Shown: in pieces, positions 28,760 to 48,300 of the stretch
Layout: every line of letters begins with the position of its first letter
How positions within the stretch are numbered: position 1 is the stretch's first letter
Source: an uncultured Elusimicrobia bacterium
GTDB taxonomy: Bacteria > Elusimicrobiota > Elusimicrobia > 2-01-FULL-59-12
Direction of reading: 5' to 3'
Length of the DNA stretch: 64,000 nucleotides
Assembly (NCBI GenBank): GCA_964506645.1
Contig: CAZDML010000002.1
Span: 3,012 to 67,011 of the forward strand
Made by a program: the position numbers and the translations under genes
The notes under the pieces: generated by a model
What the model saw: the letters and a program-made list of their open reading frames with translations, nothing else
What the model was told of the DNA's origin: nothing
Databases searched by the model: none

Positions 28760-29428
28760 TTATTCGATGGGGGTTGAGAGTTGAACGTCAACGAGGGGAT
28801 GCGTCAGCCAGGACAGCATTTTAGAGAAGACCGCAAAACGGTTTCGGATGGCCGGTGTCGCTCTCACAATCACGGGGGCAGCCGGTTTCGCTGCAGGCGC
28901 AGCGGCTTTACGGGAGAGTTCTTCTCTCCGCAGGCGCTGTGCCAGAAGCGAACAGTCTTCCACGCGGGTGCACACGGCGTTGAGTCGGTGCGTCAGATGG
29001 GTGAGCATGCGGCGGTACAAACGAGCCTGTGACCGCCAGCTCGACGGCAGCTCCGCGGAGGCATGATCCAGCATGGCGGACGCCCGTTCGGTTTGACGCT
29101 GGATACGCTGTACGACCTGCGCTATCGCCAGAACTTCTTTTAAAGGAAGCGCGGTTTTGTCCCATCCACGGATCTGCGTTTCGCACTCGGAGGTACGCTG
29201 GCTAATGAGATCGAGAATCTGTCGAAGGTGATGTAGGGGATTCTGCGGCACTGTGACAGTCACCGTCACAGACGGACGTACCGCCGCACGAGACCGCGCC
29301 ACGGCAAGATCCAGGCGCTCTTCATGAAAAGCCAGACGCTCATAAGCGTCCTGAATGGCCTGCGCTAACCCTACGGGCGGCGTGTGGGCAGCGGCACTGT
29401 GATGGCCGGCTGATTGAGATAATTCCAT
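28760..29428 (-). CDS. hypothetical protein (alpha-helical, no recognisable domain); last gene of the coiled-coil operon
   Basis: ORF only. It is tightly linked downstream of the Pro/Ala-rich protein, overlapping it by 58 nt, so an internal alternative start is possible. Confidence 0.35.
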   Translation of the reverse strand: MELSQSAGHHSAAAHTPPVGLAQAIQDAYERLAFHEERLDLAVARSRAAVRPSVTVTVTVPQNPLHHLRQILDLISQRTSECETQIRGWDKTALPLKEVLAIAQVVQRIQRQTERASAMLDHASAELPSSWRSQARLYRRMLTHLTHRLNAVCTRVEDCSLLAQRLRREELSRKAAAPAAKPAAPVIVRATPAIRNRFAVFSKMLSWLTHPLVDVQLSTPIE

Positions 29429-30174: not shown

Positions 30175-32228
30175 GCCGCTTTTCCTTGGGTCGGACGAGT
30201 TTTGAGCGATTCCAGCGCGGATTTCATGTCCTGCATGGACTGTTTAATGTCGCCTAACGCTTTTTGTGCCACGGGTGTTGCCGCCGCTGGCTGAGTCGCT
30301 TTCTTTTCCAAATCCAATTTTACACTATTCCATTCCGATTCTTTCTTGGTCCATTCCGTTTCCTTTTTCGCATGCTCTTGCTGCAGCTTATTGATTTCAT
30401 TCTGCACATTTGTGAAAGCATCTTTGAGAGCACTTTGGGCCGATTTCCACTGCTCTTCCTTGGCCGACCATTCCGCCAGCGTGTGCTGCGCTTCTTTGTA
30501 ATCGGATTGGCTGCGATTCAGATCTTTTTCAAGCATGTCCTGGCGCGCTTTGAGTGCTTCCATTTCTTTCTGTGCGTCATTCATATCCTGCTGATGGGCC
30601 AGAATCGCTTCTTTCTGTAGCTGCAGTTCCTGTTGGCGAGCGTCGAGCACCGTACGCAACGAGCCTAGCTCCAATTGCATGGCCTGGCGGGATTCCTCGG
30701 CTTCTTTTTCTTTCATTTGCACTTCAGCAATACGAAGCAACAGTTCCTTGGACTGTTTTTCATACTGATCGCGCTCTTCCACCAATCGCGACTCTGCCTG
30801 CTGGACATGCTGCTGAGCAAGATTGAGCTGTTGTTTAAATTCAGCAATGGCAGCTGTTTTTTCATGCTCGATTTTTGTGCGTTCCTTTTCAAGACGCTGC
30901 TGGTATATCACGGGCATCTCATGGAGCACCTCTTCGCGCGCTTGGAGGCGAATCGACTCTGCCTGTTTTTTCCATTCACTGCGCTCCACCTCAAACCCAC
31001 GTTTCATATTCGCGATTTCAATGCGTAGCTGTGCAATATCTTCTTCGCGCTGCGTTACGCCGTATCGGGCCGTGTCGCGTTCGGAGCGGAGTTGCGACAG
31101 CATCCCTTCCCAGTACTGTGCCCGTTCCTGATCACGGCGGACAAATTCCCGTTTAATATCTTCTTCGCGCGATACGACCTGCGATTCCAGGCGCTGGCGA
31201 ATCTCAAGATGATCCTGCTCAAGTTGGTCGAGTTTGGTCTGCCAACGCAAGCGCTCCTGCTGTTGCTGGACGTCCGTCTGCTGAACCTGTGACTGTAAAA
31301 GTGCGATCTGGGCTTTGAGCTGCCCTTCGTCGCGCAAGCGTTTTTCCAGTTCGGCCTGCATTTTCTGCTCATAGGTCTGCCGGTCCTGCAGGGCTGTCTC
31401 TTTGATGCGCTGAAGCATTTCATCTTTCTGGTCCAGCGCATCTTGCAATTTTTCATTGTCGAGCTCGGCCTGACGTTTCAGCTGGCTAATCACTTCATCG
31501 CGCTCACGCGTGGAGGTCATCCACTGATTTTTTTCTTCGTGATAGCGACGTTCGATCTCGCGCATCTGGCGCGTTAAATTCTGTTCGACTTCGCGCTCCA
31601 TCTTTTCACGTTCTTTAAGCTGATTCTTCAGCGCGATCATCCAGGTTTCCCGCTCATCGGCAATCCGGCGTTCCAGATCTTTAATCTGGCCTTCCGCCTT
31701 GCCGCGCGACTGCTGCAGTTCCTGTTCGTATTTTTCCCGGCGCAATTTTTCCTGCATGTCACGCAGCTGCTGTTCAACGCGCACGGAAAGATTTTCATCC
31801 TCCTTGGCCTTGAGCGTCTGGATCATAAGCTTCTCGTGTTCTTCCTTTAACTGGCGTTCCAGGTCCTGGACCTGTTTTTCCATGGCTTTCTTGGATTCCA
31901 TCTGTTCCTGAAAACGGCGTTCCATTTCCTGCATTCGGGCTTCCAGGAGATTGGTCATAGGGGCGGCACCGGGCGTCGGGGGCATTCCCATAGGCGTCAT
32001 CGGACGCGGCGGCATATTGGGCATGGACGGCTGTGGCACAGCGGGCGCAGGCGTTGGAGCGGGCGCGGCGGCCTTGGGCATCGCAGGGGGCATGACACTG
32101 CCCATCGCTGCAGGCGGTGGGGGCGGCGGCGGGGGTACCGGCCGGCGCGCGGGCGGCGGCGGGGGTACAGGTTTCGAGGCTCCGGGTCCCGGCGGGGGCG
32201 GCGGTGTCATTCGCGATTCTTCAGCCAT
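30171..32228 (-). CDS. polyproline (FH1-like) N-terminus + ~580-aa continuous coiled-coil protein
   Basis: MAEESRMTPPPPPGPGASKPVPPPPPARRPVPPPPPPPPAAMG.. followed by uninterrupted E/K/Q/R/L heptad-rich sequence to the C-terminus. An AAAGGAG Shine-Dalgarno sequence lies 8 nt upstream. No signal peptide or TM. Confidence 0.6.
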   Translation of the reverse strand: MAEESRMTPPPPPGPGASKPVPPPPPARRPVPPPPPPPPAAMGSVMPPAMPKAAAPAPTPAPAVPQPSMPNMPPRPMTPMGMPPTPGAAPMTNLLEARMQEMERRFQEQMESKKAMEKQVQDLERQLKEEHEKLMIQTLKAKEDENLSVRVEQQLRDMQEKLRREKYEQELQQSRGKAEGQIKDLERRIADERETWMIALKNQLKEREKMEREVEQNLTRQMREIERRYHEEKNQWMTSTRERDEVISQLKRQAELDNEKLQDALDQKDEMLQRIKETALQDRQTYEQKMQAELEKRLRDEGQLKAQIALLQSQVQQTDVQQQQERLRWQTKLDQLEQDHLEIRQRLESQVVSREEDIKREFVRRDQERAQYWEGMLSQLRSERDTARYGVTQREEDIAQLRIEIANMKRGFEVERSEWKKQAESIRLQAREEVLHEMPVIYQQRLEKERTKIEHEKTAAIAEFKQQLNLAQQHVQQAESRLVEERDQYEKQSKELLLRIAEVQMKEKEAEESRQAMQLELGSLRTVLDARQQELQLQKEAILAHQQDMNDAQKEMEALKARQDMLEKDLNRSQSDYKEAQHTLAEWSAKEEQWKSAQSALKDAFTNVQNEINKLQQEHAKKETEWTKKESEWNSVKLDLEKKATQPAAATPVAQKALGDIKQSMQDMKSALESLKTRPTQGKAA

Positions 32229-32249
32229 GGCAAGCTCCTTTCAAACGGT

Positions 32250-35200
32250 TTACGACGCTTTCGGTTTTTTCTTCAAATCGAGTGACGCGCGCAGGCGGCT
32301 GGCCCACGTGCTGAGCTGCGTATTGGACGGATCCAGTGACAGCGCCCGATCCACGGCCTCGGCGGCACGCTGCTCATCGCCCTGGGCATGGTAGGCCAGA
32401 GCCAGGTACTGATACGCTGCACCCCAATGAGCATTCTTCTCCAAACATTCCTGAAACGACCGGATAGCATCGGGCCACTGCTGCGCTTGATAAAAATGGA
32501 CACCGGCCTCAAACGACGACCAGGCCGCCGCGCCCAGGCGCTCGGTTTTGGCACTGGTCGGCGAGAGCACGCCGTCTTTAAGTCCTTCGACCTGCGTGCG
32601 CAGGTTGTCCACCAGCTTTCGAGTGCTGTCGCGCAGCGCCGTCATTTCCTTGTCCTGTTTTTCAATCTGGGTCATGAGCTGCGTAAAGAGGGTTTCACGT
32701 TCTTTAATCAGCGTGTCAAAGTGTTTCTTCATCTCGGCCTGCTGGTCCTGAATCTGTTTGATCTGTGTTTCGAGCTGGCGACGCTGAGCTTCAAGTGCGT
32801 GCTGGGCGGATGCGTCGCGAGCGGCTGCATTTTTGGAAGACTGCATATCGCGCTCCTGCATCGCAGCCAGCTGTGTCTGCACCGTTTTTAGCTGAGTCGC
32901 CACGCGGGCCTGCTCGGTCTTATGGTGTTGGCGCACGCGGTTTAATTCTTCCGTCGACTGCTTTTTCAGCTTCTCCAGTTCTTTGCGACGTTTCTCCGCT
33001 TCTTCCTGCAGTCGACGGTCGCGCCATTCCAGGCGGTTTTTTGCCACCCGCAAATCTTCTTCCTTAATATGCAGTTGTGATTCCCAGGTCGATTGCTGCT
33101 GTTGGGTGACCTCTTTCAAATGGGCAAGCTGAACACGCAGCGGTTCAAGGTCTGTCTCGATCTGCCCCTTCAAGCGCTCCTGCTGGGTTTCCATCTCAGA
33201 TTCTTTGAGGCTGAGTTCCATGTGCAGCTTGGTCATGGACTCTTCCATGCGGCGCACTTCTTGTTCCGCATGTTTTTGCAGCTGCTGAATATCTTCTTCG
33301 AGCTGTCTCTTTTCCTGATCCAGTGCCTGCTTTTCATTTTGCCACTGTTCCAGAGACGAGCCCCACTGCAACTCTTCGCTGGATTCGCGTTTCTGAATTT
33401 CGGCGACCGCACGACTCATCTCCGCTTCTTTGTCAGCCACCTGACGCTGATAATGGGCTTGGAGTTCCTCCAGCTCCTTCTCACGTTTTCGGATCTGCGA
33501 CAAGAGAGCCTGGCGGTCCTGGTCATGTGCCGTTTCCAGCGATTTGATTTCGCTCTGCAGCCGTACGTCCCACTGCGCTACTTCCTGCCGCAGCTCGCTG
33601 ATTTCATTGGCTTTTTCTTTGCGCAGCGCTTCCCAATGATCCTGCGCCTGCGCAAGATGGCTTTTGAGCTGGTCAATCTGAGTGCGCAGCGCCGTATTGG
33701 TGGATCTCCAGGAATTGACCTTTTGATTAAATTCTTCGCCCAGCACTTTCAAGCGGTCTTTGGAGGAGGTCAGGAGATCTTCCAACTCCTGTTCCTTGGA
33801 CGCCAACTGCGATTCAAAAGATTTGCGGTCTTTTTCTGTCTGCGTTTGCAACGCGGTCAGCGTTTCCTGGACCTTGCGTTTTTCTGTGTCAAAGTGGGTG
33901 CTCTTTTCCACAATCTGCTGATCACGCTGCATCTTGGCGCGGTTGAGTTCGTTTTCCAGCTGACGGATTTCCTTTTCACGGTTGGCCAGCTGTCGTTCCG
34001 ACACTTCCTTATGATCTTTGAGCTTCCATTCCAATTCGTCTTTGGCTTTTTCCAGCTGGAAGCGTTCTTCAGCAAATTGTTTGGCCAAACGGTCGAGTTC
34101 GCCTTCCCGCTCAGCTTCTTTAGCCAGCAAATTGGAGCGCAGCGTCGTGATTTCGGAATCGCGAGCGGCACACTTTTTCGCCCATTCTTCTTTGAGCTGA
34201 ACCAGCTGTTCTTTGATCTTTTCTTCTTTGTCATGGCCGCGGCGCATGAGCGTGGACAACGCACGGTCGTAGCGGTCAAGGGTCTGCTGGTGTTTGGCCT
34301 GATCTTTGACGAGCTGCTGCTGAATATGGGCAATGCGTTCCTCGCGAACGCGGATTTCCTGAGGGAAGCCGGCCTGCGACTGTTTGAGTTCTCCCTCAAT
34401 CTGCTGCAGCATGTCTTGCAACGTGCGGGCTTTGACGGTGGCCGAATGGATCAGCTCGCGCTTCTTGGCTTCGTGCGCCACGGCCTGCTGGCGCACCTGT
34501 TCTTCGAGCTGTTCAACCAAAAGGGTTTTTTCGGCGTGTTGTACTTTGCCGGAATTGACCAGGGCTTCCTGCTCAGAGCGCAGGGCATCGAGCTTGGCTT
34601 TGAATTCGGCACGCGCCTCACGAAACTGGGTATCCCGCGTCTCGCGTTCGGTCTTGGCTTTCTGCGTGATCTGCTGCAGCTGTTCTTTTAGTGCTTTCTG
34701 TTCGTTTTCCAGATCAAAAAGCTGTTTGTCGTGTGTCAATTTTTCATCTTTCAATGCTTCCTGCAGCTGCTGGTAGCGATCTTGGAGCGGCTGCACCTGC
34801 TGGTCAAGGATTTTTTGTTCTTGTTCCAGTTTCTGGGCATGCAGCATTTCCTGCTTCTGAATTTCGGCTTCCAGCGCCAGCTTCTCTTTTTCTTTCTTGT
34901 CGACTTCCTGACGCCAATAAATCTGGATGCGTTCTTTGTCCCCTTGAGCCGCGGCCAGCTGCTTTTCCATCGAAGCCCGCTCGGCGTCAATCATCTGCTC
35001 CTGCTCATGGGCAGCGGCAACCAACTCTTTGTAGCGGGTTTCCAAGTTCTGGCGCAGAGCACCCAACTGATTGGCCTTTGACTGCACTGACGCTTTGTAC
35101 TGTTCACGTGCCTGAGCAATTTCTTTTTCTAAATTGAGGATTATGCTCTGTGCTTTGGCTGTTTCTCTCTGACAGGCGTCCCGTTTTTCCTGCATGGCCT

Positions 35201-37217
35201 GGTCAAGCAGTTCCGGCAGGTGGGCCAAGCGAGCGGCCATATCTGCACGCTCTTTTTCTTTGGCTTCCATCGTCTTCTGGAACTTAACGTCTTCTTCACG
35301 GCGCACAGCCATAAAAGCTTCAAGCGCTGCACGGCGTTCTTCAAATTTCTTGCGCAACCGCTCTTCCTGCTCCGCATTGCGCTTGCGCAGCATTTCTTCT
35401 TTGGCTTTGAAATCTTTTTCCAGCGTTTCAATGGCGTTACGGTGGTCAATCTCGTAGCTTTGGGACGATTCCTGAAGCTTGGTGATTTCGCGTTCAAGCG
35501 CACGCACGCGAGAGCGGGTCGCTTCCACCTGGCGCGAGAGCGCCGTTTCTTCCGTAGTGTATTTTCCTTTCAGCGCGGCTTCCTGAGTCGCAAGCGTGGC
35601 GGCGAGTTCTTTGATCGCCTGCTCTTTAAGTCTAATCTCTCCCTGGAAGCGCAGGCGCTGCTCCTGCAGTCCTTGTTCGGCTTCGCCTTTCTGACGTTCC
35701 AGCTCGACCGTTTCGGCCTGTAAAACACGTGCAGCATCTTCGTTCTGCTGCGTCAAATCCTGCAAGCGTTTTTGAGCACTGGCTTCCAGTGTCGCTTGTT
35801 CCTCGCGCAGCTCAACCGAGCGCGCTTCAAATTGTTTCAGCTTCTCCTTCTGCTGATCTTCCAACGCCTGGAGCTGAACCGCGAGCACTCGCTTTTGCTC
35901 ATTGATAGCACCCATGCGCTGCCCGTACTCTGAATCGAGTTTGCGTAGAGCCGTGCGGATGGATTCCTGAGTCTGGGTGAGTTCTGCTTCTTTATTTTCC
36001 AGGGAGATTTTCCAGCTCTGCTGTTCCTCTGCCAACTGACGCTGCACGGACTGCACCTGCGCTACGGCAGAGGCCACGGTCTCTTCTAAAATTTTCTGTG
36101 CCTGTTCCGCGCGGGTCTTGGCATCCGTTTCCACAAGCACTGATTTCATCTTAAGCTGCTGAATTTGTTCCTCGCGTGACTGCAAGAGCTGCTGCCAGGA
36201 TTGGTTTTCCTTTTCAAAATGGGCTTTGAGCGCGGTGAGTTTTTCCAACGCGCGGTCGTGTCGGTGCGTAATTTCTTGCAGACGCTTTTCCTGTTCGAGC
36301 TGCCAGGCGGTCTGACGTTCCTGCAGCGCCGAGTGCAGCCGAGTGCGTTCTTCTTCCTTCGACTTCATCGCTTCTTCCCAGGCTTTGCGGCGTTCGGCCC
36401 ACTGTTTCTCCAGCGTCTGCAAACGGGTTCGCCAGAGTTCTTCAGCCGCCTTCTTCTGCGCGTCCTGATCCTGCATTTCTTTCTGCAGGCCGGTCTCGCG
36501 GCGTGCCAGTTCCTGCTTGAGTGCCATCAGTTCTTCATCGCGGGCTTGGATCACTTCCTGCCATTTCTGGCGTTCCTGAAGGAGCCGGGCTTCCTGCACC
36601 TGCACCGATTCCTCGGCCTGGCGCAGCGCCTGCACACGGGATTCTTCTTCTTTGTCCGTGAGATTCTTTTTTTCGATGTGTTCGGCTTCCACCTGACGCG
36701 CGGCCTGTTCAAGCTTCTTTTCGCGGTCGGCAAGCTGGCGCGTCCAGGCCGCAGAATCTTCGTTCAGCTTGCGTTCGAGGAATTTAATTTCCCGCTGCGC
36801 ATCCTGCTGGAGAAACTGCAGGGACTGCTGATTGGATTCGCGCTTTGTCTTAAACGTGATATCGAGTTTTTCCAGCTGCGAGCGCGTCGCCTGGATTTCT
36901 TTATCCAAGTTCTGCAGGCGCACCTGCGCTTCGGCGCGTTCTTTGAGGATCAGGTCTTCGAGGTTCGGCTTATCGGATTTGGGAGTGGACCCGTCTTGGG
37001 CCGAACCGGCTTCCGGTGTGGCGGGCGTTTCTGCAGGAGGAGGTCCGGCCGGTTTTTTGACCGACCGTACTGTTTTGGGGGCTGTTGGTTTCGTGGAAAT
37101 GGGAGCTGACGGAACAGACGCCTCGGACGCAGGAGTGTCCTGAGCCTTGTCTTTCGAAGGCGCAGGATCTGCAGGTTTCTTCCCCCACAGGTTTCGGAAA
37201 CGGTCGGACATGGACAT
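32250..37217 (-). CDS. giant (~1656 aa) coiled-coil protein with a C-terminal TPR domain
   Basis: About 1550 aa of E/K/Q/R/L-rich predicted coiled coil, then TPR-like ..AHWGAAYQYLALAYHAQGDEQRAAEAVDRALSLDPSN... The start is MSMSDRFRNLW (ATG 37217-37215) with a GGGAG Shine-Dalgarno sequence. The track's upstream MHVKK start would lie inside the predicted promoter. Confidence 0.65.
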   Translation of the reverse strand: MSMSDRFRNLWGKKPADPAPSKDKAQDTPASEASVPSAPISTKPTAPKTVRSVKKPAGPPPAETPATPEAGSAQDGSTPKSDKPNLEDLILKERAEAQVRLQNLDKEIQATRSQLEKLDITFKTKRESNQQSLQFLQQDAQREIKFLERKLNEDSAAWTRQLADREKKLEQAARQVEAEHIEKKNLTDKEEESRVQALRQAEESVQVQEARLLQERQKWQEVIQARDEELMALKQELARRETGLQKEMQDQDAQKKAAEELWRTRLQTLEKQWAERRKAWEEAMKSKEEERTRLHSALQERQTAWQLEQEKRLQEITHRHDRALEKLTALKAHFEKENQSWQQLLQSREEQIQQLKMKSVLVETDAKTRAEQAQKILEETVASAVAQVQSVQRQLAEEQQSWKISLENKEAELTQTQESIRTALRKLDSEYGQRMGAINEQKRVLAVQLQALEDQQKEKLKQFEARSVELREEQATLEASAQKRLQDLTQQNEDAARVLQAETVELERQKGEAEQGLQEQRLRFQGEIRLKEQAIKELAATLATQEAALKGKYTTEETALSRQVEATRSRVRALEREITKLQESSQSYEIDHRNAIETLEKDFKAKEEMLRKRNAEQEERLRKKFEERRAALEAFMAVRREEDVKFQKTMEAKEKERADMAARLAHLPELLDQAMQEKRDACQRETAKAQSIILNLEKEIAQAREQYKASVQSKANQLGALRQNLETRYKELVAAAHEQEQMIDAERASMEKQLAAAQGDKERIQIYWRQEVDKKEKEKLALEAEIQKQEMLHAQKLEQEQKILDQQVQPLQDRYQQLQEALKDEKLTHDKQLFDLENEQKALKEQLQQITQKAKTERETRDTQFREARAEFKAKLDALRSEQEALVNSGKVQHAEKTLLVEQLEEQVRQQAVAHEAKKRELIHSATVKARTLQDMLQQIEGELKQSQAGFPQEIRVREERIAHIQQQLVKDQAKHQQTLDRYDRALSTLMRRGHDKEEKIKEQLVQLKEEWAKKCAARDSEITTLRSNLLAKEAEREGELDRLAKQFAEERFQLEKAKDELEWKLKDHKEVSERQLANREKEIRQLENELNRAKMQRDQQIVEKSTHFDTEKRKVQETLTALQTQTEKDRKSFESQLASKEQELEDLLTSSKDRLKVLGEEFNQKVNSWRSTNTALRTQIDQLKSHLAQAQDHWEALRKEKANEISELRQEVAQWDVRLQSEIKSLETAHDQDRQALLSQIRKREKELEELQAHYQRQVADKEAEMSRAVAEIQKRESSEELQWGSSLEQWQNEKQALDQEKRQLEEDIQQLQKHAEQEVRRMEESMTKLHMELSLKESEMETQQERLKGQIETDLEPLRVQLAHLKEVTQQQQSTWESQLHIKEEDLRVAKNRLEWRDRRLQEEAEKRRKELEKLKKQSTEELNRVRQHHKTEQARVATQLKTVQTQLAAMQERDMQSSKNAAARDASAQHALEAQRRQLETQIKQIQDQQAEMKKHFDTLIKERETLFTQLMTQIEKQDKEMTALRDSTRKLVDNLRTQVEGLKDGVLSPTSAKTERLGAAAWSSFEAGVHFYQAQQWPDAIRSFQECLEKNAHWGAAYQYLALAYHAQGDEQRAAEAVDRALSLDPSNTQLSTWASRLRASLDLKKKPKAS

Positions 37218-37237
37218 AGGTTTATTCTCCCGCAGTG

Positions 37238-37265
37238 AGTTTAGTCCGTATTGACAGCATTTCAA
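37238..37265 (-). promoter_or_regulatory. candidate sigma70-type promoter of the coiled-coil operon: -35 TTGAAA (37265-37260), 16-nt spacer, -10 TAAACT (37243-37238)
   Basis: Read on the minus strand inside the 37218-37404 gap. It is followed by GGGAGAATAAACCT-ATG. Further upstream are an AT-rich block and the CTCAG/CTGAG motif array. Confidence 0.35.
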
Positions 37266-37367
37266 GGCTTTTTTTACATGCAACGAAATGGGGAGAAATG
37301 GCCCAAAACAGCTCAGAATGCAGAATTCAATGCTCAGAGCGATAAAAAGACTACCTATATATAAGAT

Positions 37368-37395: not shown

Positions 37396-37404
37396 GTGCG
37401 CCTG

Positions 37405-39021
37405 TTATTCCGGGCGCAACTGCTTCATGAACTCGCTGATTTCTTTGTCGTTGGGGTCGATTTCCAGCACGCGGCTCCAGAGCTTGCGAGCGCGGGTATG
37501 GTCATCGAGCAGGAAGAAGGCAGAGCCCATGATCTTCATGGACGTCACATCGTTCGGGTTTAGATCCAGGATGTCCTGGCATTTCTTGATGGCGACATCG
37601 TACTTGCCTTCCAGAATCGCCTGGCGAGCATCGAAGATCTTCTGATCGACCGGGCTGAAGAGTTCCGGACCCTTCGGCCGTTCGGTCTTGTCAAGATTGG
37701 TGTCAGCTTCCATCTTGTTGAGGAGCGACAGGAGCTTCTCGTTGCGCGGATCTTTGAAGTACGCCTGACGCAAAGCAGCAATCGCGCTCTTGGTGTCGTC
37801 GTTGACGTAAGAGAGCACGCCCTTGCGCACCATCGCCGCCGATTCCTCATTACCCATGGCTGACGGTACGTTCGCCACCACTTTCTGGAATTTCTCAACG
37901 AGCACCTGGACTTTCTTGTTTGACGGATCCACGTCCAAGGACGCCTGCAGCTGTTCCTGCGCTGCCAGGAAGTTCCCGGCTTCCATTGCCTTGTAGGCTT
38001 TTTGGATGAGCGCATGGACGTTTTCTTCGCGGCGTTCCAGGACGGAACGGCCAAATTTAAAGGAGACGGAGATGCGGCTTGAGGTTCCCAAGGTGTGCAG
38101 GCCCAAGGCATAGTCAAAGGTCAAGCTCTTTATGGAATAGCCAAAACCCACATCGGTTTCGCGCAGGCCTTCACCCAAGTCGTATTGAATCCCCACACGG
38201 CCTTTGAATTTCTTTGTAAAGCCAAATTCCCCACCCAAATGGAGTCCGGTGTTGGCCGCGAGGTTTTTATCGATATCTGTCGAAAGCAAGAGGCGGCGTT
38301 TGAAGAACTGGTCGGAAAAACCGAAGCGGAAAACCAGAGGCAGTGTGTCGGACGTATCGCCCGAGGTCTTGGCGTAGACGTCCCGGATGGTCAGACCAAA
38401 GCGACGCAGACCATCGCGCGTATCGAGCAGAGCCCCCAGGTCAGCTGCCAGAGAAGAATCGGACGAGGTATCCACAGCACGAGTGATCTGGCGAATCGAG
38501 GTTCCAATTGCCACATGGTCGACCACCTTGCGGCCGTAGGAGAAGCTGTTGGCCGATTCGCTCACCTGGAAGCCACCGCCCTTTTCTACGCTCGTATAGG
38601 TCTGCGTGTTTGGGTCGATTTTGGCGGTCACACGTTCAAAGCCGCCGCTGGAGAGTTGTGTCATGCTGACGCCCCAGGCGCTGCCTCCCTTCTTGGACGG
38701 ATGCACATAGGAGTAGAAATTGTATTTGGTTTCACCGTAGAGGGTGGCCTGCAGGAGGGTCAATTCTTTGCGGGTGAGCTGGGACATGCCCGCCGGGTTC
38801 CAGTAGGTGGCGCTGGCATCATCCGCAACGCTGACGAAGGCACCGCCCATGGCCAGGCTGCGGGCGCCGGCGCCGTAGGACAGGAATTCCGTCACCTGGC
38901 CGCCGGTGGCTTCAGTGTGGCCAATCGACGGAACGAGTGCGATGAACAAAATTAAAACGCACGCTCTCTGTAGAGAGAACATGCGCCCAAAAAACCCAGC
39001 AAAGGTCTTCGTTAAGTTCAT
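37405..39021 (-). CDS. FadL/PorV-family-like outer-membrane beta-barrel (N-terminal ~330 aa) fused to C-terminal TPR repeats
   Basis: Signal peptide (..CVLILFIALVPSIGHTEA). The N-terminal motif ..FLSYGAGARSLAMGGAFVSVADDASATYWNPAGMS.. matches the FadL/TodX/PorV family plug-hatch region (FadL: ..GLGRAYSGEGAIADDA..NPA..). Alternating beta-strand patterns follow to about residue 330. The C-terminal 200 aa are TPR-like (..AYKAMEAGNFLAAQEQLQASLDVDPSN.., ..ILEGKYDVAIKKCQDILDLNPND..). No Shine-Dalgarno-like sequence. Confidence 0.5.
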   Translation of the reverse strand: MNLTKTFAGFFGRMFSLQRACVLILFIALVPSIGHTEATGGQVTEFLSYGAGARSLAMGGAFVSVADDASATYWNPAGMSQLTRKELTLLQATLYGETKYNFYSYVHPSKKGGSAWGVSMTQLSSGGFERVTAKIDPNTQTYTSVEKGGGFQVSESANSFSYGRKVVDHVAIGTSIRQITRAVDTSSDSSLAADLGALLDTRDGLRRFGLTIRDVYAKTSGDTSDTLPLVFRFGFSDQFFKRRLLLSTDIDKNLAANTGLHLGGEFGFTKKFKGRVGIQYDLGEGLRETDVGFGYSIKSLTFDYALGLHTLGTSSRISVSFKFGRSVLERREENVHALIQKAYKAMEAGNFLAAQEQLQASLDVDPSNKKVQVLVEKFQKVVANVPSAMGNEESAAMVRKGVLSYVNDDTKSAIAALRQAYFKDPRNEKLLSLLNKMEADTNLDKTERPKGPELFSPVDQKIFDARQAILEGKYDVAIKKCQDILDLNPNDVTSMKIMGSAFFLLDDHTRARKLWSRVLEIDPNDKEISEFMKQLRPE

Positions 39022-39336: not shown

Positions 39337-42300
39337 CTAGTGGATAACCCCGATCTTGCGGATAACCGTCGCGGAACCCTTCTGACCGCCGGCCTTAATC
39401 TGAGCCAAATAGCCGCCCTTCGATACTTTCTGACCGGCTTCGTTCGTGCCATCCCATCCGCCCGGAGGCACCGTATTCGGGCCCTGACGACCGCCTTCAG
39501 TACCACCTGGGAAGCTCCAGTGCATGACGCGGTAGCCGAGCAAGTCGTAGATCGTAATTTCTACATCGGCGTCGCCAGCCAATAGATAGGTAATGAAGGT
39601 CTTCCCTTCCAGACCACCCTTACGTGTATCCACCGGGTTCGGGTAGTTCGACACTTCCGAGATGATGTCTTCCGGCAGACCCGTGTTTACCGTCTCAGAA
39701 ATCGTCGACCATTCGCTGGCCGTCCCGGCGCCGTTGATCGTCTGAATCTGCCAGCGGTAGAAATTGTTCGGCGAACGTGCCGCACCTGTTTCCCCATTTA
39801 GGTAGACCAACGGTGAGGTGGTGCTAGCGCCGCCAATGCTGGCTGCACCGCCTGGCGCATGCAGACTGTAGGCAGGCGCGTTGTTGTTGATGTTCGATCC
39901 GAAGGTGTAGCTCGGAGTCGAGGTCATGATAATTTCTGTCGGCACAGGACTCGTTCCTTCGAACTGACGGATCTTGTAAGCGAAGATGCCCGACGGGCCG
40001 TAATCCGACGGCACCGGCCACTGCAGGGTGACGATACCGGTGTTGGACGTCTTCGGCAGATTGATGAACTTCGACGGTGGCGCAGGCTTCGTGACATCGA
40101 CATGCACAGTGCCCATCATCACCGGCGATGGCGGCAATGTCAGGCCGTTGATCGTAGTAATCGTGCGCACGAAGAAGTAATAGGTCTTCGTATCTTCCAG
40201 ACCCAAACCGGTCAGCGTGATCGGAGGCGTCTGACTCAGCGAGACCCAGCCGGTCAAGCTCGGAGCAATCGTCGTATTGCTTGACGCGCTCATACCCACC
40301 TGATAGGTCACGGTCACATTGGCCGGCAGAGACGGAGGCACCGTGGTCCAGTGCGCGGAGATCGCACCCTGATCATGGACCCAAGCTTCCGGCATATAGA
40401 CGCCTTCCAGTCCCGAGACAGTGCTGGTCGTTAAATCCGGACGCATGGTCACGGTGCCCACTTGCACTGTCTGGAAGTTAAAGATTGGCACAAGAGCGCT
40501 GCGAATCGGGTAGACGTTGCTTTGATCCTGCAGCGCGGTGAGCGGAGTCATGGTTATAGCGCCTGCAGAGGCCACTGAAATGCCTGCACTATGGCCCTGG
40601 GTCGCCGCACCGGATCCGTCGACGGTACCGATATCTGCGGAGACTAGCAGCGTAGCCCCCGACGTATTAATGCTCACTGCTGTCGAGAACGGAATGGTCG
40701 CCAGTCCACCGATAAATCCACTGGAGGTCGTGCCCCATGGCAGCGAGCCCAAGAGTGAATCGCCGGCGTCCAGCTTCCCGTTATAGTTGGTATCCAGATG
40801 CACATAAAGTCTCGAGAAGTCGCCATCCCCCACCAAGTTGGGCGGAGTTCCCGTCGACGTGGTAATGGTGCCCAGTTGCGTTAAGGTCAACGAGCTCACC
40901 ACCACTTGATTGATACTGGGCTGGATGGTCACACTCATCAATGGAACACTCGCCTCGCCTTCCAATGCCGACCCCGGAGCCAGCGATTGGCCGCTCACGC
41001 GCACTGTCAGCGGGCTGATGGTCACCTGGCGCGATTCCACGGGGATGCCATTCGGCAGCATCTGATCGACACCGATCGGCGTGAACGAACCGCCGAACCA
41101 GCCTGGATCAATAATCGTCAGACCTTCCGTGTTGTTTGAGGTCGCGCCCGTCGCGATATCGTACGCTACAAAGTAGGTTTGTGTCGTGGGGCTCAAGAGC
41201 TGATCTTTAATCGTCAGCTGCACCGTCTTGGGATTGGTGCCATTCGGGTCCGGCTGCACGAAGGTGCCCGAGCTGATCAATTCATCCGTCGTCGGCTCCA
41301 GGATGCCATTGAAATTCACGTCACGGTACACTTTCACGAGTCCAATATCGTCATTGGAACCCTGGGTCTGCACGGCGCCGGCACCTTTGCGCGAGATCTT
41401 GAGCGTGTTAAACAACGCCGTAGATACATTCGAGCGCAGAGAGAATTTCAGGATTGGAATGTCTTTATCGCCCTGTGTCGCATACACCGGCGTAATGCTC
41501 GTATCTGGTGAAAACGACACTTGATCCGGATATTCCGAGAACGCCGCCAGTTTTGTCGTCAGCGGCGGATTGGCCGAGAGTGTCACAAGGTCCGGTGTGA
41601 TCACAGCGAAGGATGTCGTCGCCGATATAAGTCCTCCAATACTCACCGCTTCGCCCGCATCCTGTACACCGTTGTTATTCAGATCGCGGTAGACCGGCAC
41701 AAACGGGTTAATGTCATAGGTAATGAAGTAGTTCATCCCCGTAATCTTATCGGTCACATTCGGAATAATCTGCTGCGCCGTAAAGGTAATGGCGCGTACG
41801 CTGTTCGTAAAGTTATCGGTGCCCGGAGTAATCTGACCCGGTTTTGTCCCCGCATCACTGACCAGGGTATCATTCACCACGCCGCGAACATTGGTCGCAA
41901 TCGCATGCACCGCCGCAGTGGTGCCCAGGAAACCGCGGGTGAGACCGGTGAAGTTGCCCGCCAAGTCGTTGTTCGCATAGCGAATGAGTTCGCTACCGAC
42001 CAACAGTACAGCCGGACCGATAGGGAAAGACGTCGAGACAGCCACCTGCAAGCTTGAATCCGACGCCGTGATGGCCTGAGACAGTGTTGAGAGCGGAAGG
42101 GTGTTGCCATCATCGAAGATGCCGTTGTCATTGATATCTTTCCACACGTTCATGCGCAGGACATCGCCGTCGTCGGGTTTAGCGCCTGTACGGGTGAGTG
42201 TAAGGCCGGTCCAGATGACGGTGTTTTGATTGACCTTCAAATTCATCTTCGCTACCGGCACATTTGTTGCATTCTGCTGAATGACCGTCGGCAGGAGATC

Positions 42301-45300
42301 CGTAAAGACAACGGTCATCGTATCAACCGTCGCGCCAATCACATGGTCGCCCGTCTGCATCGGGAAGTTGGTCGGCATGACCGAGTGGATCCCGTCGCCG
42401 GCGACAAGCGCCCCCACGGTGAAAGCGTCTTTGGTGATCGCGTTCAGTGCGAAAGCATGACCCGCCGTAGCCGACTGGCTAATATCCGCCACAACCCAGT
42501 ACGTCGCCGGCGCAGTACTAATGAGCACATACCCCGGACTGCCGAGGTTTGGATCATTGACAGCCAAATGAATCGAGCCAAACTGAGACACACCACTGCC
42601 GACCAGGGTGTTCTGAATACCAATTTCTCCATCGGACGTACGGTAGAGCGTGTCCCCGCTATACACTTTCACCGCTGAGAGATCGCTGTCAGCACCTGAA
42701 AGGCCGCCCGGTGTGCGTCCCAGATCCAGCGAGAACCAGCGGATGTTGTAGTCGTCGATATCCTGCAATGAGAATTTGATCAGCGCTACGTTGCGCATGC
42801 CCTGCGTGTAGTTCACACCGATATAGTTCGGCTGTTCCACGCTGTTCACATAGGTATAGGTCGAGTGGATGGCCGGCGGCGTCGTGCAGGAACCAGACAC
42901 GCAGCGCGAGAGACCCGTAAGCACGTTGCCCAAGATGCCGGTATAGCCCAGCACTTCGGCGTCAATCACCATCAAACCGCTGGTCGGCATACCGCTAGAG
43001 GTGTTCAAGGTGGCCGTCACATCGTTGCTCATGACCGGCGCCAAGAGGTGCGGCAGTGGATAGTTGCCCGTATCTGTTGAGAAGTAATAGGTCGAGCTGG
43101 CCTGCAAGCGCTGCGGTTTGGGAATAATCGTACGCAGTTTCGAGCTGGCAGGCATGTTCGTGCCCGACATCGTATTGGGCGCTGAGATGTTCACAAAGAC
43201 CGGCGAGCTCACGGTGACACCGATCGTGTTCTGCGGGGTCGCAATATTGGCCATATCGAAGGTGATGAAATAGTTGTTGAGTTTGCGGACGGCCGTATCT
43301 ACTTTGAGCGGGCCGGTCGTCAGGTCGTTCAAATCCGTGGAATACGTCACGGTATCGAAGTTAATGCGTGCCAGGCCGGCGGCCGGGTTACCAAATACCC
43401 CTGAGCCCAGGGGTGGCGAGTCGACGGCGACGTTAAAGATACCGGTGCCTGCACGGTCGTACCATACTTTGACACTTGTAATATCGCTGTCGGCAGCCGT
43501 TCCCGCGCGCGACACCGTGATACCGGTAAACCCAGCACGGGCATGGTTGGTGCGCATATCGAAGCGTAGGACGGCCTGATTGGTTGCACCTTGCTGCAGG
43601 TAATCGCCGACCGTTGTATTTGTGGAGGTCAGCACCACCGTATCCACATATTCCTTGACGTTGGTGATATAGGTTCCCGCCGTCTGTCCGAGAGGCGGCA
43701 GCCCGATATTGCCCGAATGATTACCCACCAAATCCGGCGTATCAACAACGAAGTACGAGGTCGATGCAATTTCTACACCGAGAGAATCCTGCGAGTTTAC
43801 ATTCGCCAGGTAATTAATATCCATGACGATAAAGTAATTCTTCGGTGTGACAAGAATTTCCTGACCATTTAAAATACCGTTTGGATCGACCAGATCCAGA
43901 TAGGCCTGGCCCTCCACATCCGTGCCTGCCGTATGGGCAGCGGCCACGGTGCCACTGCTGGCGCGCACCACACCCGTCAACTTGTTGTTTGTCAAATCCA
44001 AAGCGGTATAGGTCATTTGCTCATCATCAATCCAGACCAGACCCGGAGCCGGCGGATAGGCACTGGCGTCGTTGACCGGAATCACGGTGGTGGATGCATC
44101 GACATCCGCGGTCAACACTTCATGCGGAAACTCATAGACTTTGGATGTGGACGTCACCAGTGTATCGGCATTCACTTCAAACAAGCCGTCATTGTTGTTG
44201 TCGTAATACACGCGGATCGCATCAATATCACGAGCATGGTTAAAGCCGTTCGGATTGCCACGATCCAGTCGCAGATGGTTCCAGATCGCGCTGTTCACTA
44301 AGCCGCCCCCAAGCGGGTTGCGCACGGCCAGTGTCATCTTCATCGCGACCACATCGGTGTCTCCCTGGGTCGCCACTTGGCCAATGTTAAAACCGTTGGC
44401 CGGGTCGTTCACACGGGTCAGATCCAGTTCGTCCGTGCTCGGCTGGACAGGCACCTGCGTAGAATTAATTTGTGAGAATGCGCCCACGGTCCCATCGGCA
44501 GGGAAGATATCGGACGGGTTACGGACAGACGCGCCTTGTGTATTAAGCGACGCTGATGGGCTTAAGTGATACGCGATAAAGACATAGCTGGTCGTCGGCG
44601 TCACGATCAAATTGGAATTGAGTGTAATCGAGGTGACTTGGTTCACAAACGTGGCACCGCTGGTGATATCGCAGTTATCCAGCGATGGGGTAAAGACGCC
44701 ATCGCTGTTACAATCTTTATAGATTTTCACGTCCGCGATATCCGTGTCGTCTCCGGTTCCCGTGCGGCTGACACGGATACGGTTCACCGCACCCTGGAAG
44801 GCATCGGTCCAGAAACCCAGGCGCAACATGCCAACCTGGTCGCTTCCCTGGCTGACATAATTTTGTTGTCCGAGCCCTGTCCCCGGATCCCACCAAGCAG
44901 CAAGATCCTGTCCATCCACGCGAATCGTAGCGGGCTGACGAAGAACGGGCGAGGTGCTCGTAACCACAGGGAAGTTGTTACTGGCCATACCCAGACCCAC
45001 CACTGTGACTTGGCTGGCGGCCGTGACTTTGAGACCGAGGTTGGCTGGCAGTGCAGTCACCACATCGCTGGCCACACGGACTGAGACAAAGTAGTTCTTT
45101 GCAGAAGCCGCTGTAATCGGCAAGCTCAGGTTCGCAAACGTAGCGACTCCATTTACGAACGTCGTGCTACTGACCATCGGATCCGGCTGGACTCCTTGAT
45201 AGGTCGATTCTGGCTGGAATTTCCCGTCGTTGTTAATATCGTAGTTCAGATCCAGCTCTGCAATGTCACTATCGGCGAGCGCCCCCGACGCTAGATTCTT

Positions 45301-48300
45301 CGTAAGGACAATCTGACTAATGATGGTCGAGGATGAATAGGTCGGCGGTTGCACTTGGAAACTAAGACGCATCATAGGCACCGGCAAGTATTGTGGATCT
45401 ACAGGAACTGTTCCGTCGCCCTGAGCCAAGCTTGTCTTACCCTGCCACCGTGTCCCCAAGAGCAACACCTGTTTGGCGTTATACGTGGGATCTGTCGTGG
45501 GCACAGGCGACAGATCCACCGGCGTCATGACGACACCGGCGGTCACCAGATCACCATAAGAATGCACGGGGACGATGCGCGCTGCATCGTTTGTCCAGCC
45601 CTGGAGCGTATCTTCATTCGGATCAAAGGCGTTGTTGCTCGGAACTACCGGTGGAACAACCGTCACAAAATCAGTCGCTGACACATGCAGCGTCTCCTGT
45701 ACGCTGTCGGTCATGAGCAGATTGGAGTATGTCCCCGCATCGGCGACCTTAAAGGTATAGCTGGACACCACATGCGCCAAGTCGGTCGCATCATAAATCT
45801 GGACCGTGGTGGTTGAACCCGAGGTACCAAACTGAACCGTACCCGTGTAATACTGACCGTTTTTGACATCGCCGCGCGCCACGTTGCCAAATTGGTCGCG
45901 CGCCACAATATTTCCAAACGGCAACAGGTTGTTGACGGGCATCGGGTTATTGACGTTATTAATCGGTTCGATCGTGAGATACGCTGCCGGCGCCGGCGAA
46001 ATAAAGTGCGTGGTGGTCGCCGAGGTGAGGGCACCGACGCTGTCGAAGGCCACCATGGTGCGCGTGCCCTGCTGCGTATCGTAGTAGTACATACTGACCG
46101 AGCTATTGCCAGCGAGCATCTGCACCGGCAGGACGTTCGGCAGGACAGGGCCCGGAATGTATTTGAAGAGTGACAGGTTGGACGCATCGGTGTAGCCGTA
46201 GGCACCGGTGGAATTCGATACATAGAAGTTCACGACCGTGTTTGCGGTCACAGACGAAATATTGAGGTACGGGTCCATCGCACGCACGGTGATCACGGTG
46301 TTGGTCGGCGCACCCACCGAGTAATTGGGTTCATACTGCACGGTCGTTCCGGCCACGAGGTAGCGTGACGGGGTAGCAAACACCAGCTGGCTCGCCGGCG
46401 CTGGGGCCACTGTATAGGTTGAGTTTGCTGATACAAAACCGTTGCGACTGATGGTCACCGTACGATCACCGGCCAGCGTGTCCTTCATATAGAAGGTCAT
46501 CGTACTCTGACCCACGGCTATCGTGGCCGAGCTCGTTCCCGACTGGAAGGCGGAGGTACTGTACGGTGTGGCAAAGCTCGCCGTTCCCGGAACATCTGTC
46601 GTTAAGGTGAACACCGCGGCCGAATTGGTGATCGGGCTCGGGTTGCCGAATATATCTTCCGAAGCAAAGCGGAACTGCTGGGACGTTGTTCCCGCCACAA
46701 GCGCCGATGGCGCGCTCAGGAAACCAATCTGATAGAGCGCGTTGGGAGAAATCGTCACTTTCTGCGTCCCGGTACTCAGAAGCGCGCCATCAATGGTCCC
46801 TGTGGAGAAGGCCCGCAGCATCGGGCTCGACACCGGCGCTGTATAGTTTTCACTGGCGTTCGTATCCAGGTAGTAGAAGGTCGTACCCCAGAAACCGCTG
46901 TTGATCGTCACGGTCGTGATTGGATTCACAAAAGACGGCGCCGGCGGTGCAGCGAAGTAGGACGTTGACGACGAGAAGCCGTAAGCGTCGTAGCTCGATG
47001 AGACCACACGGTAGCTGGCCAAGAAGAGGGTCGCGGTGGAGACCACCGGCGTTGGATTGCCATAGGTATCTTGAATTTCTAGATTCAGATATGACAGGTT
47101 CGGATTACCGGTGAGAGAGAGCGGCGTTCCGGCGACGAGTGTACGCACCGGGTTATGGAAAGCAATCTGCGCTTTGGCATCCGGATTCACGATAAGGTCA
47201 TACGAGGTCCTTACGTTAGAGTTGGCGTAGCCTGTTCCGCCGATGTAGGCGCGCAATGTCCAGGTCCCTACACGACCGTCTTCGATCGGCGTGGAGGACA
47301 TCTTGTCGAAGTAGACGAATGTCTTCTGCGTGTCGCCACCGCTAAACGCCAGGTTGGTAATCGGCACACCGAGCAAATTCGGATCCTGGAACTCGTAATC
47401 GTGGTTGCTGGAGGAGAAGCCGCGCCCCGCATGCACCGCGACCTGGCCATTGGCGGTGTAATCGAGTTGCACCGTTGATCCCTGATAGTCCGTCGGGTTG
47501 TCAAAGTCGTCACGACGTTCCAGTGTAAAGAGCGGCAGGTGCAGATAATCCTGGCCTGCGGTCTGCGACACCGGTGGAGAGACAAACGCCAGTTTGCTCG
47601 TATCACCACCTGTTGTAATCATGCGTCCAGACTGGTTGGCCACCGGTTGCGCTCCGACCGTTGCGCTAAACCGGACAGCGCCATAGTCGCCGGCGTGCGA
47701 GGAGACGTAGTAATACACCGAGACAGCGCCACTGGAGTTGGTTACCGTGGATGTCGTCGGTACGGGTGGCACGGCCGATGATGCAGAGGCATCGAAGGAT
47801 ATCGTCCCAGCCACACCAGACACATTCGCCGTGGTCAGGGCCACCGTAATACCGGCGCTGTCCGCATAGTTGTCGTAGGGGTCCGCCAGACGCGCCGTCA
47901 CCGGCCAGCGGCCCAGAGACGACAGCGTTCCCGCCGGTACATTTTGATCACCAGCCGGATCAACCACCCACTGCGACGGCGCACCTGGGGTCACGGTAAT
48001 ATACGAAGGGGTTGAGTACACGACCCCTGTCGGCGACCAGACATTGTTGGTGTCAATCGTCCAGCCGCGCGTCGAGTTCACGTTAATCGGATCGGAATCA
48101 TCCACTGCCTGCAGCCATCGGCTGCCTGCCGCACGCAGGCTGAAGTAGTTGGTCAGACACTTCTGTCCGCTGCCCGTAATTAAATTAAAGGTTGTGGTGC
48201 CGGGTAACCAGGGCGGATCCTGGTTGCCATCCGTGAGATAGCCGTTGCCTGTCGTCTCCGCATTGAAGGAAATCGATGTCACCGTGGAGGTTGACGTATG

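Follow-up and report, generated by a model that had tools for sequence, protein, structure and literature searches.

Within the window, i.e. the whole stretch of 64,000 nucleotides that was analysed, the open reading frame at 37405..39021 lies between the gene of a giant protein and a group of genes for coiled-coil proteins. The features of this region are the following.

37405..39021, minus strand: outer-membrane protein of the PorV/PorQ family that ends in a TPR domain; 538 aa when counted from the first ATG (ORF list, translation, NF033709)
38911..39021, minus strand: its N-terminal signal-peptide region, residues 1-37, with the hydrophobic core LILFIALVPSIGHTEA (read from the sequence by eye)
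38770..38895, minus strand: its hatch (plug) with the conserved DDASATYWNPAG motif, residues 43-84 (sequence; short helices ahead of strand 1 in the AF2 model)
38053..38769, minus strand: its 14-strand beta-barrel, residues 85-323 (AF2 model)
37420..38043, minus strand: its C-terminal TPR domain of 11 helices, residues 327-534, predicted to be periplasmic (Pfam TPR_2, TPR_19 and TPR_16; AF2 helices; TPR structures matched)
39337..62127, minus strand: giant protein rich in Thr, Ser and Gly, a putative adhesin or cargo of the cell surface; this frame gives 7596 aa (ORF list, composition)
39340..39681, minus strand: C-terminal beta-sandwich tail of the giant, last 114 aa, ending in RKIGVIH (TIGR04183, AF2, Foldseek)
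61604..64000, minus strand: the giant gene continued upstream in a different frame, running past the end of the window (open frame)
32250..37283, minus strand: very long coiled-coil protein that ends in a TPR, listed with 1677 aa (translation; TPR_2 at residues 1622-1654)
30171..32228, minus strand: protein with a proline-rich N-terminus and a coiled coil, 685 aa (translation; phmmer)
28760..30174, minus strand: two more proline-rich/helical proteins, 267 and 222 aa, whose membership of the cluster is uncertain (translations)

In the protein encoded by 37405..39021, a putative Sec signal peptide is followed by an N-terminal hatch and a 14-strand PorV/PorQ-family barrel, and TPR helices make up about the last 210 residues. 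This confirmed what the preliminary description had observed for this open reading frame. An alternative start is M14, at 38982. In the AF2 model (pLDDT 85.2) the signal region forms a low-confidence helix at residues 4-29, residues 29-40 are disordered, and the hatch (43-84) precedes the 14 strands (85-323). The plug and NPA motif, which had been taken as the hallmark of the FadL/PorV barrels, was located as GAGARSLAMGGAFVSVADDASATYWNPAGM at residues 50-79 of the translation, and none of eight positions (D67, D68, A69, A71, Y73, W74, N75 and P76) varies among 30 homologues with identities of 38-73%.

The family was established with NF033709 (PorV_fam), of which the curated cutoff of 90 bits was exceeded (107.9 bits, E 7.7e-31) by a match of residues 43-323 to profile positions 3-326 of 326, i.e. 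to the whole profile. With a profile of the homologues, PorV (6h3i_F) was the sole barrel among the best 60 of the 121 PDB sequence matches (E 6e-12), and PorV is also the nearest solved fold of the barrel. The barrel of the FadL/PorV type that had been read from the letters was in this way recovered both by HMM, with significant profile similarity, and by the count of modelled strands behind an N-terminal hatch. The resemblance is real, and chance likeness is ruled out. The curated cutoff and the nearest solved structure support the assignment of the protein as a FadL-superfamily 14-strand barrel of the PorV/PorQ family. It is indeed shorter (about 240-280 aa) than PorV (345 aa) and FadL (427 aa), as had been remarked before. 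The window protein did not reach the cutoffs of the named equivalogs PorV (NF033710, 24.6 bits versus 250), PorQ (NF033711, 70.9 versus 220) and PorV2 (NF052325, 74 versus 325), the latter two giving the best scores of these. Toluene_X (Pfam PF03349, FadL/TodX) scored 25.9 bits, under its gathering score of 29.7, and UPF0164 (Pfam PF03687, the Treponema FadL-like proteins) passed with 31.9 bits versus 21.4 in a match that covers profile positions 44-165 of 325 only.

The fusion to TPR repeats, described earlier as about 200 aa long, was established by TPR_2 (43.3 bits versus 27) and TPR_19 (40.1 versus 25) and by an array of helical hairpins in the AF2 model, with 11 helices spanning about 210 aa. 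From the topology that even-stranded barrels of the outer membrane usually have, this domain should be periplasmic. The remark that no FadL-family protein with such a fusion was known did not hold: the fusion is common among the relatives and has a published precedent in Treponema pallidum. Relatives of the barrel-TPR protein were found in 447 species genomes, the best 80 being almost entirely from Elusimicrobiota, and more than 285 homologues are of full length. The architecture is conserved throughout this phylum. Some relatives are already named 'PorV/PorQ family protein' at NCBI; other current names are 'TPR repeat protein' and 'hypothetical'. In the literature searched, Elusimicrobia were linked neither to PorV or type IX secretion nor to giant genes.

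The giant protein is probably longer than its open reading frame. On the minus strand, frame 0 stays open between 64000 and 61606, and the sensible sequence changes frame at about 61.9-62.0 kb, giving a protein of more than 8000 aa in the window; genes of relatives at the same position have been called at 10738-17969 aa. The Pfam scan of the entire giant protein returned no family at E <= 1e-5, and that of its last 199 aa nothing at E <= 1e-3. Its tail scored 19.6 bits against TIGR04183 (Por_Secre_tail, the type-A sorting domain; threshold 23), and orthologous tails pass Pfam FlgD_ig with 28.2 and 36.8 bits versus 27. In sequence, the tail also has matches at the C-terminal ends of PorU, PorZ and an M6-like T9SS substrate. 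It was modelled by AF2 as a seven-strand sandwich at the extreme C-terminus (pLDDT 94.7), for which the top Foldseek matches were the C-terminal domains of PorU (6za2) and PorZ (5m11). Ig-like beta-sandwiches are a generic fold. In an alignment of 32 homologues 22 columns of the tail are invariant. The search with the tail sequence returned solely proteins of at most 200 aa, i.e. fragments of giants and genuine small tail-only proteins. In several loci such a small stand-alone tail protein is encoded in the interval that separates the giant from the barrel.

As had been stated, the barrel gene is the next one downstream of the giant open reading frame (39337..62127), at a distance of 315 nt. 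The scan of 37150-39450 for promoters gave 2 promoter-like sites versus a shuffle mean of 1.1, and that for terminators 8 terminator-like sites versus 3.0; on the coding strand in the gap neither kind of site was found. Conservation of the gene order was established in 72 species loci. In 36 of these an open reading frame that ends in the tail lies immediately upstream of the PorV-TPR gene, and such loci occur in all four PorV-TPR clades. These upstream frames are mostly giant and most occupy the entire upstream flank. The presence of the giant in all four clades suggests an old association. All six loci of the window's clade have the arrangement, versus 3 of the 34 loci of the largest clade, which retains the operon; the barrel is therefore not solely a dedicated partner of the adjacent giant. 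The co-occurrence thus half supports the idea of a shuttle or anchor dedicated to this cargo. Judged from gene order, a functional link of the barrel to a giant tail-bearing cargo is plausible.

On its other side the PorV-TPR gene is followed by the gene of a FliG-like, membrane-anchored TPR protein in 65 of the 72 loci. Behind it come a proline-rich coiled-coil protein and then FlbD-MotA-MotB, MotA and MotB being present in 42 of the 53 loci that have enough flank; in most Elusimicrobiota a lipoprotein also belongs to this group. The Mot, FlbD and FliG identities were checked by HMM. These genes are steadier partners of the barrel-TPR gene than the giant gene; they could not be seen in the preliminary description because the window's clade is without them. 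There, two long coiled-coil proteins occupy the locus in place of the FliG-like and Mot genes, and no FliG-like TPR gene was found in the window or on the compared long contigs of this clade (116 family members, word-indexed search). The 1677-aa protein probably starts at the ATG at 37217, after GGAG. It consists for 66% of E, K, Q, R, L and A, is devoid of a hydrophobic stretch and is matched by orthologues that two clades carry at this position. Its TPR and that of the barrel protein were considered as a shared specific module; this was rejected, the similarity being generic (E 0.003). The 685-aa protein is conserved in nearly all related loci and its phmmer matches are in most of them the gene after the FliG-like gene. 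For the 267-aa protein a homologue was present in one related locus only. Neither a signal peptide nor a membrane segment was found in the coiled-coil neighbours of the window, so that direct contact between them and the periplasmic TPR is unlikely in the window's clade.

We propose, giving it about an even chance of being right, that the barrel-TPR protein is an outer-membrane dock or anchor for the tail of the giant, and that its TPR domain ties the complex to partners below. The outer face of the barrel would hold the conserved C-terminal beta-sandwich of the giant encoded just upstream, much as PorV and PorQ are reported to hold PorU and PorZ and as SprB is held by PorP/SprF, and the periplasmic TPR would tie the giant-barrel complex to partners beneath the outer membrane. 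In most Elusimicrobiota these would be the FliG-like TPR protein, the proline-rich coiled-coil protein, FlbD-MotA-MotB and the lipoprotein; in the window's clade the neighbours are instead the two long coiled-coil proteins, of which one has a TPR at its end as well. Docking is proposed because the tail has sequence matches to the C-terminal ends of PorU, PorZ and a T9SS substrate and is closest to PorU and PorZ in structure, and because the gene order is like that of sprB-sprF, with the tail-ending frame adjacent in half of the loci. The tie through the TPR is proposed because of the PorE-PorP precedent and the recurrence of the FliG-like and MotA/MotB genes. Tail binding, anchoring, any motor coupling and the periplasmic place of the TPR are inferred. 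Against the proposal are the scarcity of the upstream giant in the largest clade, the TIGR04183 score under the cutoff, the generic fold of the tail and the reported non-motility of the isolates. The same holds for the coiled-coil neighbours, with their want of export or membrane signals, and for the FliG-like gene not found in the window's clade.

The steadiness of the FliG-like gene (65 loci, versus 36 for the giant) could also mean that the protein forms the outer-membrane terminus of a complex which spans the envelope and is built around the FliG-like protein plus an FlbD-MotAB stator, with a role independent of the giant, e.g. in envelope tethering, energised outer-membrane maintenance or another kind of export. 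The giant gene would then be a frequent but secondary neighbour. This agrees with the HMM-verified Mot, FlbD and FliG identities and with the largest clade, where the operon is kept and the upstream giant mostly is not. However, the window's clade has kept the barrel and the giant, while the FliG and Mot genes are absent from the locus and apparently also from other long contigs; moreover, the giant is found adjacent in all four clades and small stand-alone tail proteins sit between the giant and barrel genes in several loci. We regard this explanation as unlikely.

Two further explanations, both of them quite improbable in our judgement, start from the family itself. The protein might be a canonical PorV within a complete type IX system, carrying many substrates with such tails from the SprA/Sov translocon to the PorU sortase. 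Membership of the PorV/PorQ family, the SprA-bound PorV as nearest solved structure and the resemblance of the giant's tail to type-A sorting domains would fit. However, the PorV, PorQ and PorV2 equivalogs were missed by wide margins, and the genes conserved beside the barrel are those of a flagellar-type motor and not of GldLM/PorLM. In the window, and among the called genes with Pfam matches in a handful of related loci, no core gene of a type IX system (SprA/Sov, PorK, PorL, PorM, PorN or PorU) was found, nor were such genes met in the literature searched for the phylum Elusimicrobiota. To our knowledge, type IX secretion has been described only for Bacteroidota and their relatives. Alternatively, the barrel might be a channel of the FadL/TodX type through which hydrophobic nutrients pass, a role proposed for the FadL-like proteins of T. 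pallidum, with the TPR serving solely as a periplasmic hand-off platform. The UPF0164 match, which recalls those proteins, is partial. Toluene_X stayed under its gathering score and no FadL/TodX chain occurs among the matches listed (best 60 of 121, to E ~9e-4), in contrast to PorV. Genes for fatty-acid or aromatic catabolism are not conserved nearby, and the neighbours are not lipid-metabolism genes. The plain FadL-type channel that had been left as the alternative is hence disfavoured.

The docking proposal can be extended, as a tentative and on balance doubtful possibility, to an envelope-spanning machine not described before. Its outer-membrane end would be the barrel-TPR protein, and an FlbD-MotA-MotB stator acting on the FliG-like protein would move, tension or export the tail-held giant. 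It would act via the periplasm and the TPR on the giant held on the surface by its C-terminal tail. Such a machine, derived from a flagellar motor, would be the counterpart of Bacteroidota gliding and type IX secretion. The window's clade would represent a variant in which long coiled-coil proteins replace the motor module at the locus.

PorV/PorQ-type barrels are known for handling the cargo of type IX secretion in Bacteroidota and related bacteria. By its gene order, the barrel fused to TPR is tied to two puzzles, the giant unannotated proteins and the orphan fliG, flbD and motAB genes. Elusimicrobiota have been reported to be without flagella and all isolates to be non-motile, and the role of these orphan genes has been called unclear. 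If the link is functional, these motor genes gain a concrete, testable partner, and a second, independently assembled coupling of an ion-driven motor to a surface adhesin would come into view. On a cautious reading, the fusion is not unique and the family gains a description at the level of architecture that is missing from the current names.

Of the known systems, PorV of the Flavobacterium johnsoniae type IX system (PDB 6H3I and 8GL6, chain F) is the nearest solved structure to the barrel in the window. However, it has no TPR domain, its equivalog is missed by the window protein, and its working partners SprA, PorU and GldLM were not found around the barrel of this elusimicrobial host. PorU and PorZ keep their tails and are reported to be held on PorV and PorQ. 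In P. gingivalis these four proteins make up the attachment complex (PorU-PorV-PorQ-PorZ), and it is to the C-terminal domains of PorU and PorZ that the giant's tail is closest in sequence and structure. Nevertheless, the PorQ equivalog is missed here too, the cargo is a protein of more than 8000 aa instead of a sortase or an LPS-delivery protein, and A-LPS attachment is without support here. The pair sprB-sprF likewise combines the gene of a FadL-family 14-strand barrel with that of a giant repetitive adhesin, SprB being held at the surface by the PorP/SprF barrel; the periplasmic PorE, with TPR, propeller, carboxypeptidase-regulatory and OmpA-like domains, binds PorP. Here, barrel and TPR are one polypeptide. 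The window protein is not of the PorP family by HMM, its significant matches being to the PorV/PorQ family; the tails are of type B there and type-A/FlgD_ig-like here, and any motor partner here would be the flagellar-type MotAB with FliG instead of GldLM. The T. pallidum proteins TP0548, TP0859 and TP0865 (UPF0164) likewise have a barrel of the FadL superfamily that is extended at its C-terminus by helices with a TPR motif, a part assigned to the periplasm. In these proteins the extension is a bundle of three helices with one TPR motif, in contrast to the 11 helices of the window protein, and these proteins are proposed nutrient importers without a giant-cargo or motor context. Slam, PelB, BcsC and PgaA are likewise outer-membrane barrels with periplasmic TPR domains; in these the TPR is N-terminal, the barrels come from other families, and lipoproteins or polysaccharides serve as substrates. 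The barrel-TPR protein is a variant of the already known PorV/PorQ kind of barrel, and its fusion has precedent.

The barrel-TPR protein (hereafter PorV-TPR) is encoded on the minus strand at 37405..39021 as an ORF of 538 aa, according to the ORF list and its translation, exactly where the preliminary description had placed it. Its N-terminus resembles a signal peptide, with M14 as an alternative start. The NCBI protein for this gene (P0001, 514 aa) has its start at a TTG that lies 24 codons into the ORF (window 38950-39021); this start is probably mis-called, because most of the predicted signal peptide is thereby lost. The hatch motif that had been quoted corresponds to residues 50-79, in which D67, D68, A69, A71, Y73, W74, N75 and P76 are invariant across 30 homologues (38-73% identity).

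Profile searches placed the protein in the PorV/PorQ family. NCBIfam NF033709, the model of that family, reached 107.9 bits, above its curated cutoff of 90, and was covered over the full profile, whereas the PorV, PorQ and PorV2 equivalog models remained below cutoff by wide margins and Pfam Toluene_X (25.9 bits) fell slightly under its gathering score of 29.7. UPF0164, the Treponema FadL-like family, was above threshold (31.9 bits vs 21.4) with partial coverage. When a profile of 30 homologues was compared with all PDB sequences, PorV 6h3i_F (E 6e-12) was the sole barrel among the 60 matches listed. An AF2 model built on an alignment of 30 homologues (pLDDT 85.2) showed the following layout.

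Residues 43-84: N-terminal hatch
Residues 85-323: 14 strands
Residues 327-534: 11 helices (TPR region)

As modelled, PorV-TPR is a FadL-superfamily barrel with PorV nearest by a modest margin, because ranks 1 and 2 in Foldseek against the PDB were the PorV chains 8gl6_F (E 2.7e-12) and 6h3i_F (E 5.8e-11). Both the FadL/PorV-type 14-strand barrel and the fused TPR, the latter detected by HMMs as well as in the model, were thus borne out; the feature as a whole is real and had been rightly recognised. The TPR should be periplasmic, since an outer-membrane barrel with an even number of strands has its two ends on the periplasmic side. The same topology argument was used for T. pallidum FadL-like proteins (Hawley et al. 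2021).

A homology search returned at least 285 homologues; the 120 listed were mostly full-length (39-75% identity), and the named ones among them belonged to Elusimicrobia, Endomicrobiales or Elusimicrobiales, several being labelled 'PorV/PorQ family protein'. When a single genome was scanned for each species, relatives turned up in 447 genomes, the best 80 being nearly all Elusimicrobiota. One locus labelled 'Ignavibacteria bacterium' (L050, JBGFRZ010000082.1) carries the full Elusimicrobiota-type cluster; mis-binning of the contig is a more probable cause than a true occurrence outside the phylum. Searched exhaustively on its own, the barrel matched 11,274 cluster representatives (E <= 1e-3); among the best 150, short stand-alone barrels (~300-330 aa) were interspersed with long forms (~500-1360 aa). 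TPR repeats were present in 23 of 35 more distant long forms, of which one came from Margulisiibacteriota and others from unclassified MAGs. In addition, three T. pallidum FadL-like proteins carry a short helical C-terminal extension with TPR (Hawley et al. 2021). Because of these homologues, distant forms and T. pallidum proteins, the earlier belief that no such fusion exists was wrong. The PorV/PorQ barrel with C-terminal TPR is an Elusimicrobiota-wide variant, already machine-annotated at family level and undescribed in the searchable literature.

The claimed adjacency to a giant tail-bearing gene was confirmed, PorV-TPR lying 315 nt downstream of it on the same strand.

39337..62127, minus strand: giant ORF of 7596 aa, rich in Thr, Ser, Gly and Val, ending in a 114-aa tail

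No Pfam domains were found in this ORF at E <= 1e-5. The gene switches frame near 61900-62000, through a genuine frameshift or through an assembly error of one base; a minus-strand frame is open from 64000 to 61606 with sensible repeat sequence (61604-64000). In both cases the gene carries on upstream in this other frame and beyond the window edge, so that the protein exceeds ~8300 aa. Same-position genes in relatives were called at 10738 to 17969 aa and are among the longest bacterial genes.

The last 114 aa scored 19.6 bits against TIGR04183 (threshold 23) and also resembled the C-terminal ends of PorU, of PorZ and of a type IX substrate of M6-like type. In orthologues the tail scores above threshold for Pfam FlgD_ig, and 22 positions are invariant, with RKIGVIH as the common ending. 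Modelled (pLDDT 94.7), the tail forms a sandwich of seven strands whose best PDB matches are PorU (E 1e-4) and PorZ (E 4e-4); FlgD and generic Ig-like domains rank lower, and the RemA sorting domain matched weakly. The tail was found also in small proteins consisting of a signal peptide and the tail alone. Some of these lie elsewhere in the genome in the window's clade, flanked by genes for an HNH protein and a histidine kinase; those of other clades are placed between the giant gene and PorV-TPR.

Small tail-only proteins, 124-168 aa (signal/membrane segment plus tail, ending KIGVIH; coordinates within each locus)
L086: 10001-10507
L087: 10001-10375
L013: 9547-9945
L003: 9580-9975

Gene order was compared by phmmer searches of stop-to-stop ORFs called in 80 species loci, with counts given as loci with the feature over loci with enough flank. 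The proposed co-occurrence with sorting-tail cargo was half borne out: a tail-ending ORF is directly upstream in 36/72 loci, with cases in all four clades, but in only 3/34 loci of clade 2. A FliG-like TPR gene directly follows PorV-TPR in 65/72 loci (47/53 for the FliG-like gene where the downstream flank is >=7.5 kb); MotA, MotB and a 252-aa lipoprotein each occur in 42/53, and a protein resembling the window's 1677-aa coiled coil in 10/53.

Gene order by PorV-TPR clade (clades cut at 55% identity)
Clade 1 (n=29): tail-ending ORF upstream 23/27; FliG-like next 26/26; MotA in flank 17/18
Clade 2 (n=38): tail-ending ORF upstream 3/34; FliG-like next 34/34; MotA in flank 25/25
Clade 3, the window's (n=7): tail-ending ORF upstream 6/6; FliG-like next 0/6; MotA in flank 0/5
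Clade 4 (n=7): tail-ending ORF upstream 5/6; FliG-like next 7/7; MotA in flank 0/6

In the clade without the upstream giant, a divergently oriented gene of ~200-300 aa with a shared C-terminal motif, LPPGAENNP..KYLK, directly precedes PorV-TPR and is itself preceded by succinyl-CoA synthetase-like genes.

LPPGAENNP..KYLK gene (all minus strand)
L014: 9013-9765
L016: 6666-7253
L019: 2214-2963
L021: 8742-9638
L024: 6916-7545
L059: 8956-9906

The downstream operon of locus L004 (11895-19073) encodes FliG-like-TPR, a proline-rich coiled coil, FlbD, MotA, MotB and the 252-aa lipoprotein, in an order shared by ~42 other loci. By HMM, its FliG-like protein matched FliG_C (87.6 bits), FliG_M (41 bits) and TIGR00207 (114.9 bits) and has a C-terminal TPR; FlbD scored 83.3 bits, MotA 211-235 bits to flagellar stator models, and MotB has plug and OmpA domains. 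Ahead of its FliG domains, the FliG-like protein has a signal peptide, a ~190-aa periplasmic segment and a single membrane helix; in precomputed Pfam lists, some family members also match the FliF C-terminal model and FliG_N. In the window's clade the place of the FliG-like gene is occupied by a ~1650-aa coiled-coil protein with C-terminal TPR, and the compared long contigs of this clade yielded no FliG-like TPR gene. Clade 4 carries both.

32250..37283, minus strand: 1677-aa coiled coil
30171..32228, minus strand: 685-aa proline-rich coiled coil, orthologous to the gene that follows the FliG-like one
20991..24560, minus strand: 1189 aa, a further envelope-type protein with C-terminal TPR, many NHL/beta-propeller repeats, without tail domain, a few genes away

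The strong AT skew across the coiled-coil genes (window 30000-38000, plus-strand values of about -0.26 to -0.35) arises because the minus-strand coding is Glu/Gln/Lys/Arg-rich (66% and 61% E/K/Q/R/L/A).

More noteworthy than the fusion itself are its conserved neighbours, the giant tail-bearing proteins and the orphan flagellar-motor genes. All Elusimicrobiota genomes were reported to be without flagellar machinery and all isolates to be non-motile (PMC11257099). A preprint describes full flagellar sets in a few genomes, and orphan motAB, flbD and fliG, of a role called unclear, in most free-living Elusimicrobiota (10.1101/2022.07.08.499144). Nothing tying these orphan genes to a PorV-like barrel or giant genes was found in searchable papers.

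By analogy, PorV-TPR may, with about even chances, be an outer-membrane dock for the giant's tail, whose TPR would tie the docked complex to partners beneath the outer membrane. In most of the phylum, going by gene order, a stator of flagellar type and a rotor element like FliG would be among these partners; such a new kind of machine is a tentative and rather doubtful proposal, and cannot be claimed for the window's organism because the FliG/Mot module is absent in the window. An envelope complex that does its work without the giant is unlikely; the scarcity of the upstream tail in clade 2 speaks for it, and the occurrence of that tail in every clade against it. A canonical type IX PorV, for which the structural matches to PorV speak and against which the equivalog scores below cutoff count, seems quite improbable. 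An equally small chance is given to a FadL-type nutrient channel, against which the Toluene_X score under gathering counts.

PorV pairs with PorU, and PorQ with PorZ, through retained tails. The closest working analogies to PorV-TPR are such barrels holding a partner by its C-terminal domain. PorU, PorV, PorQ and PorZ are named in the P. gingivalis attachment complex; for PorP/SprF barrels the partners are type-B tail proteins, sprF adjoins the giant adhesin gene sprB, and PorP also binds PorE, a periplasmic TPR-containing protein (PMC9143113). The dock for the giant's tail is favoured because the Elusimicrobiota PorV-TPR resembles such a tail-holding barrel into which the TPR adaptor has been incorporated.
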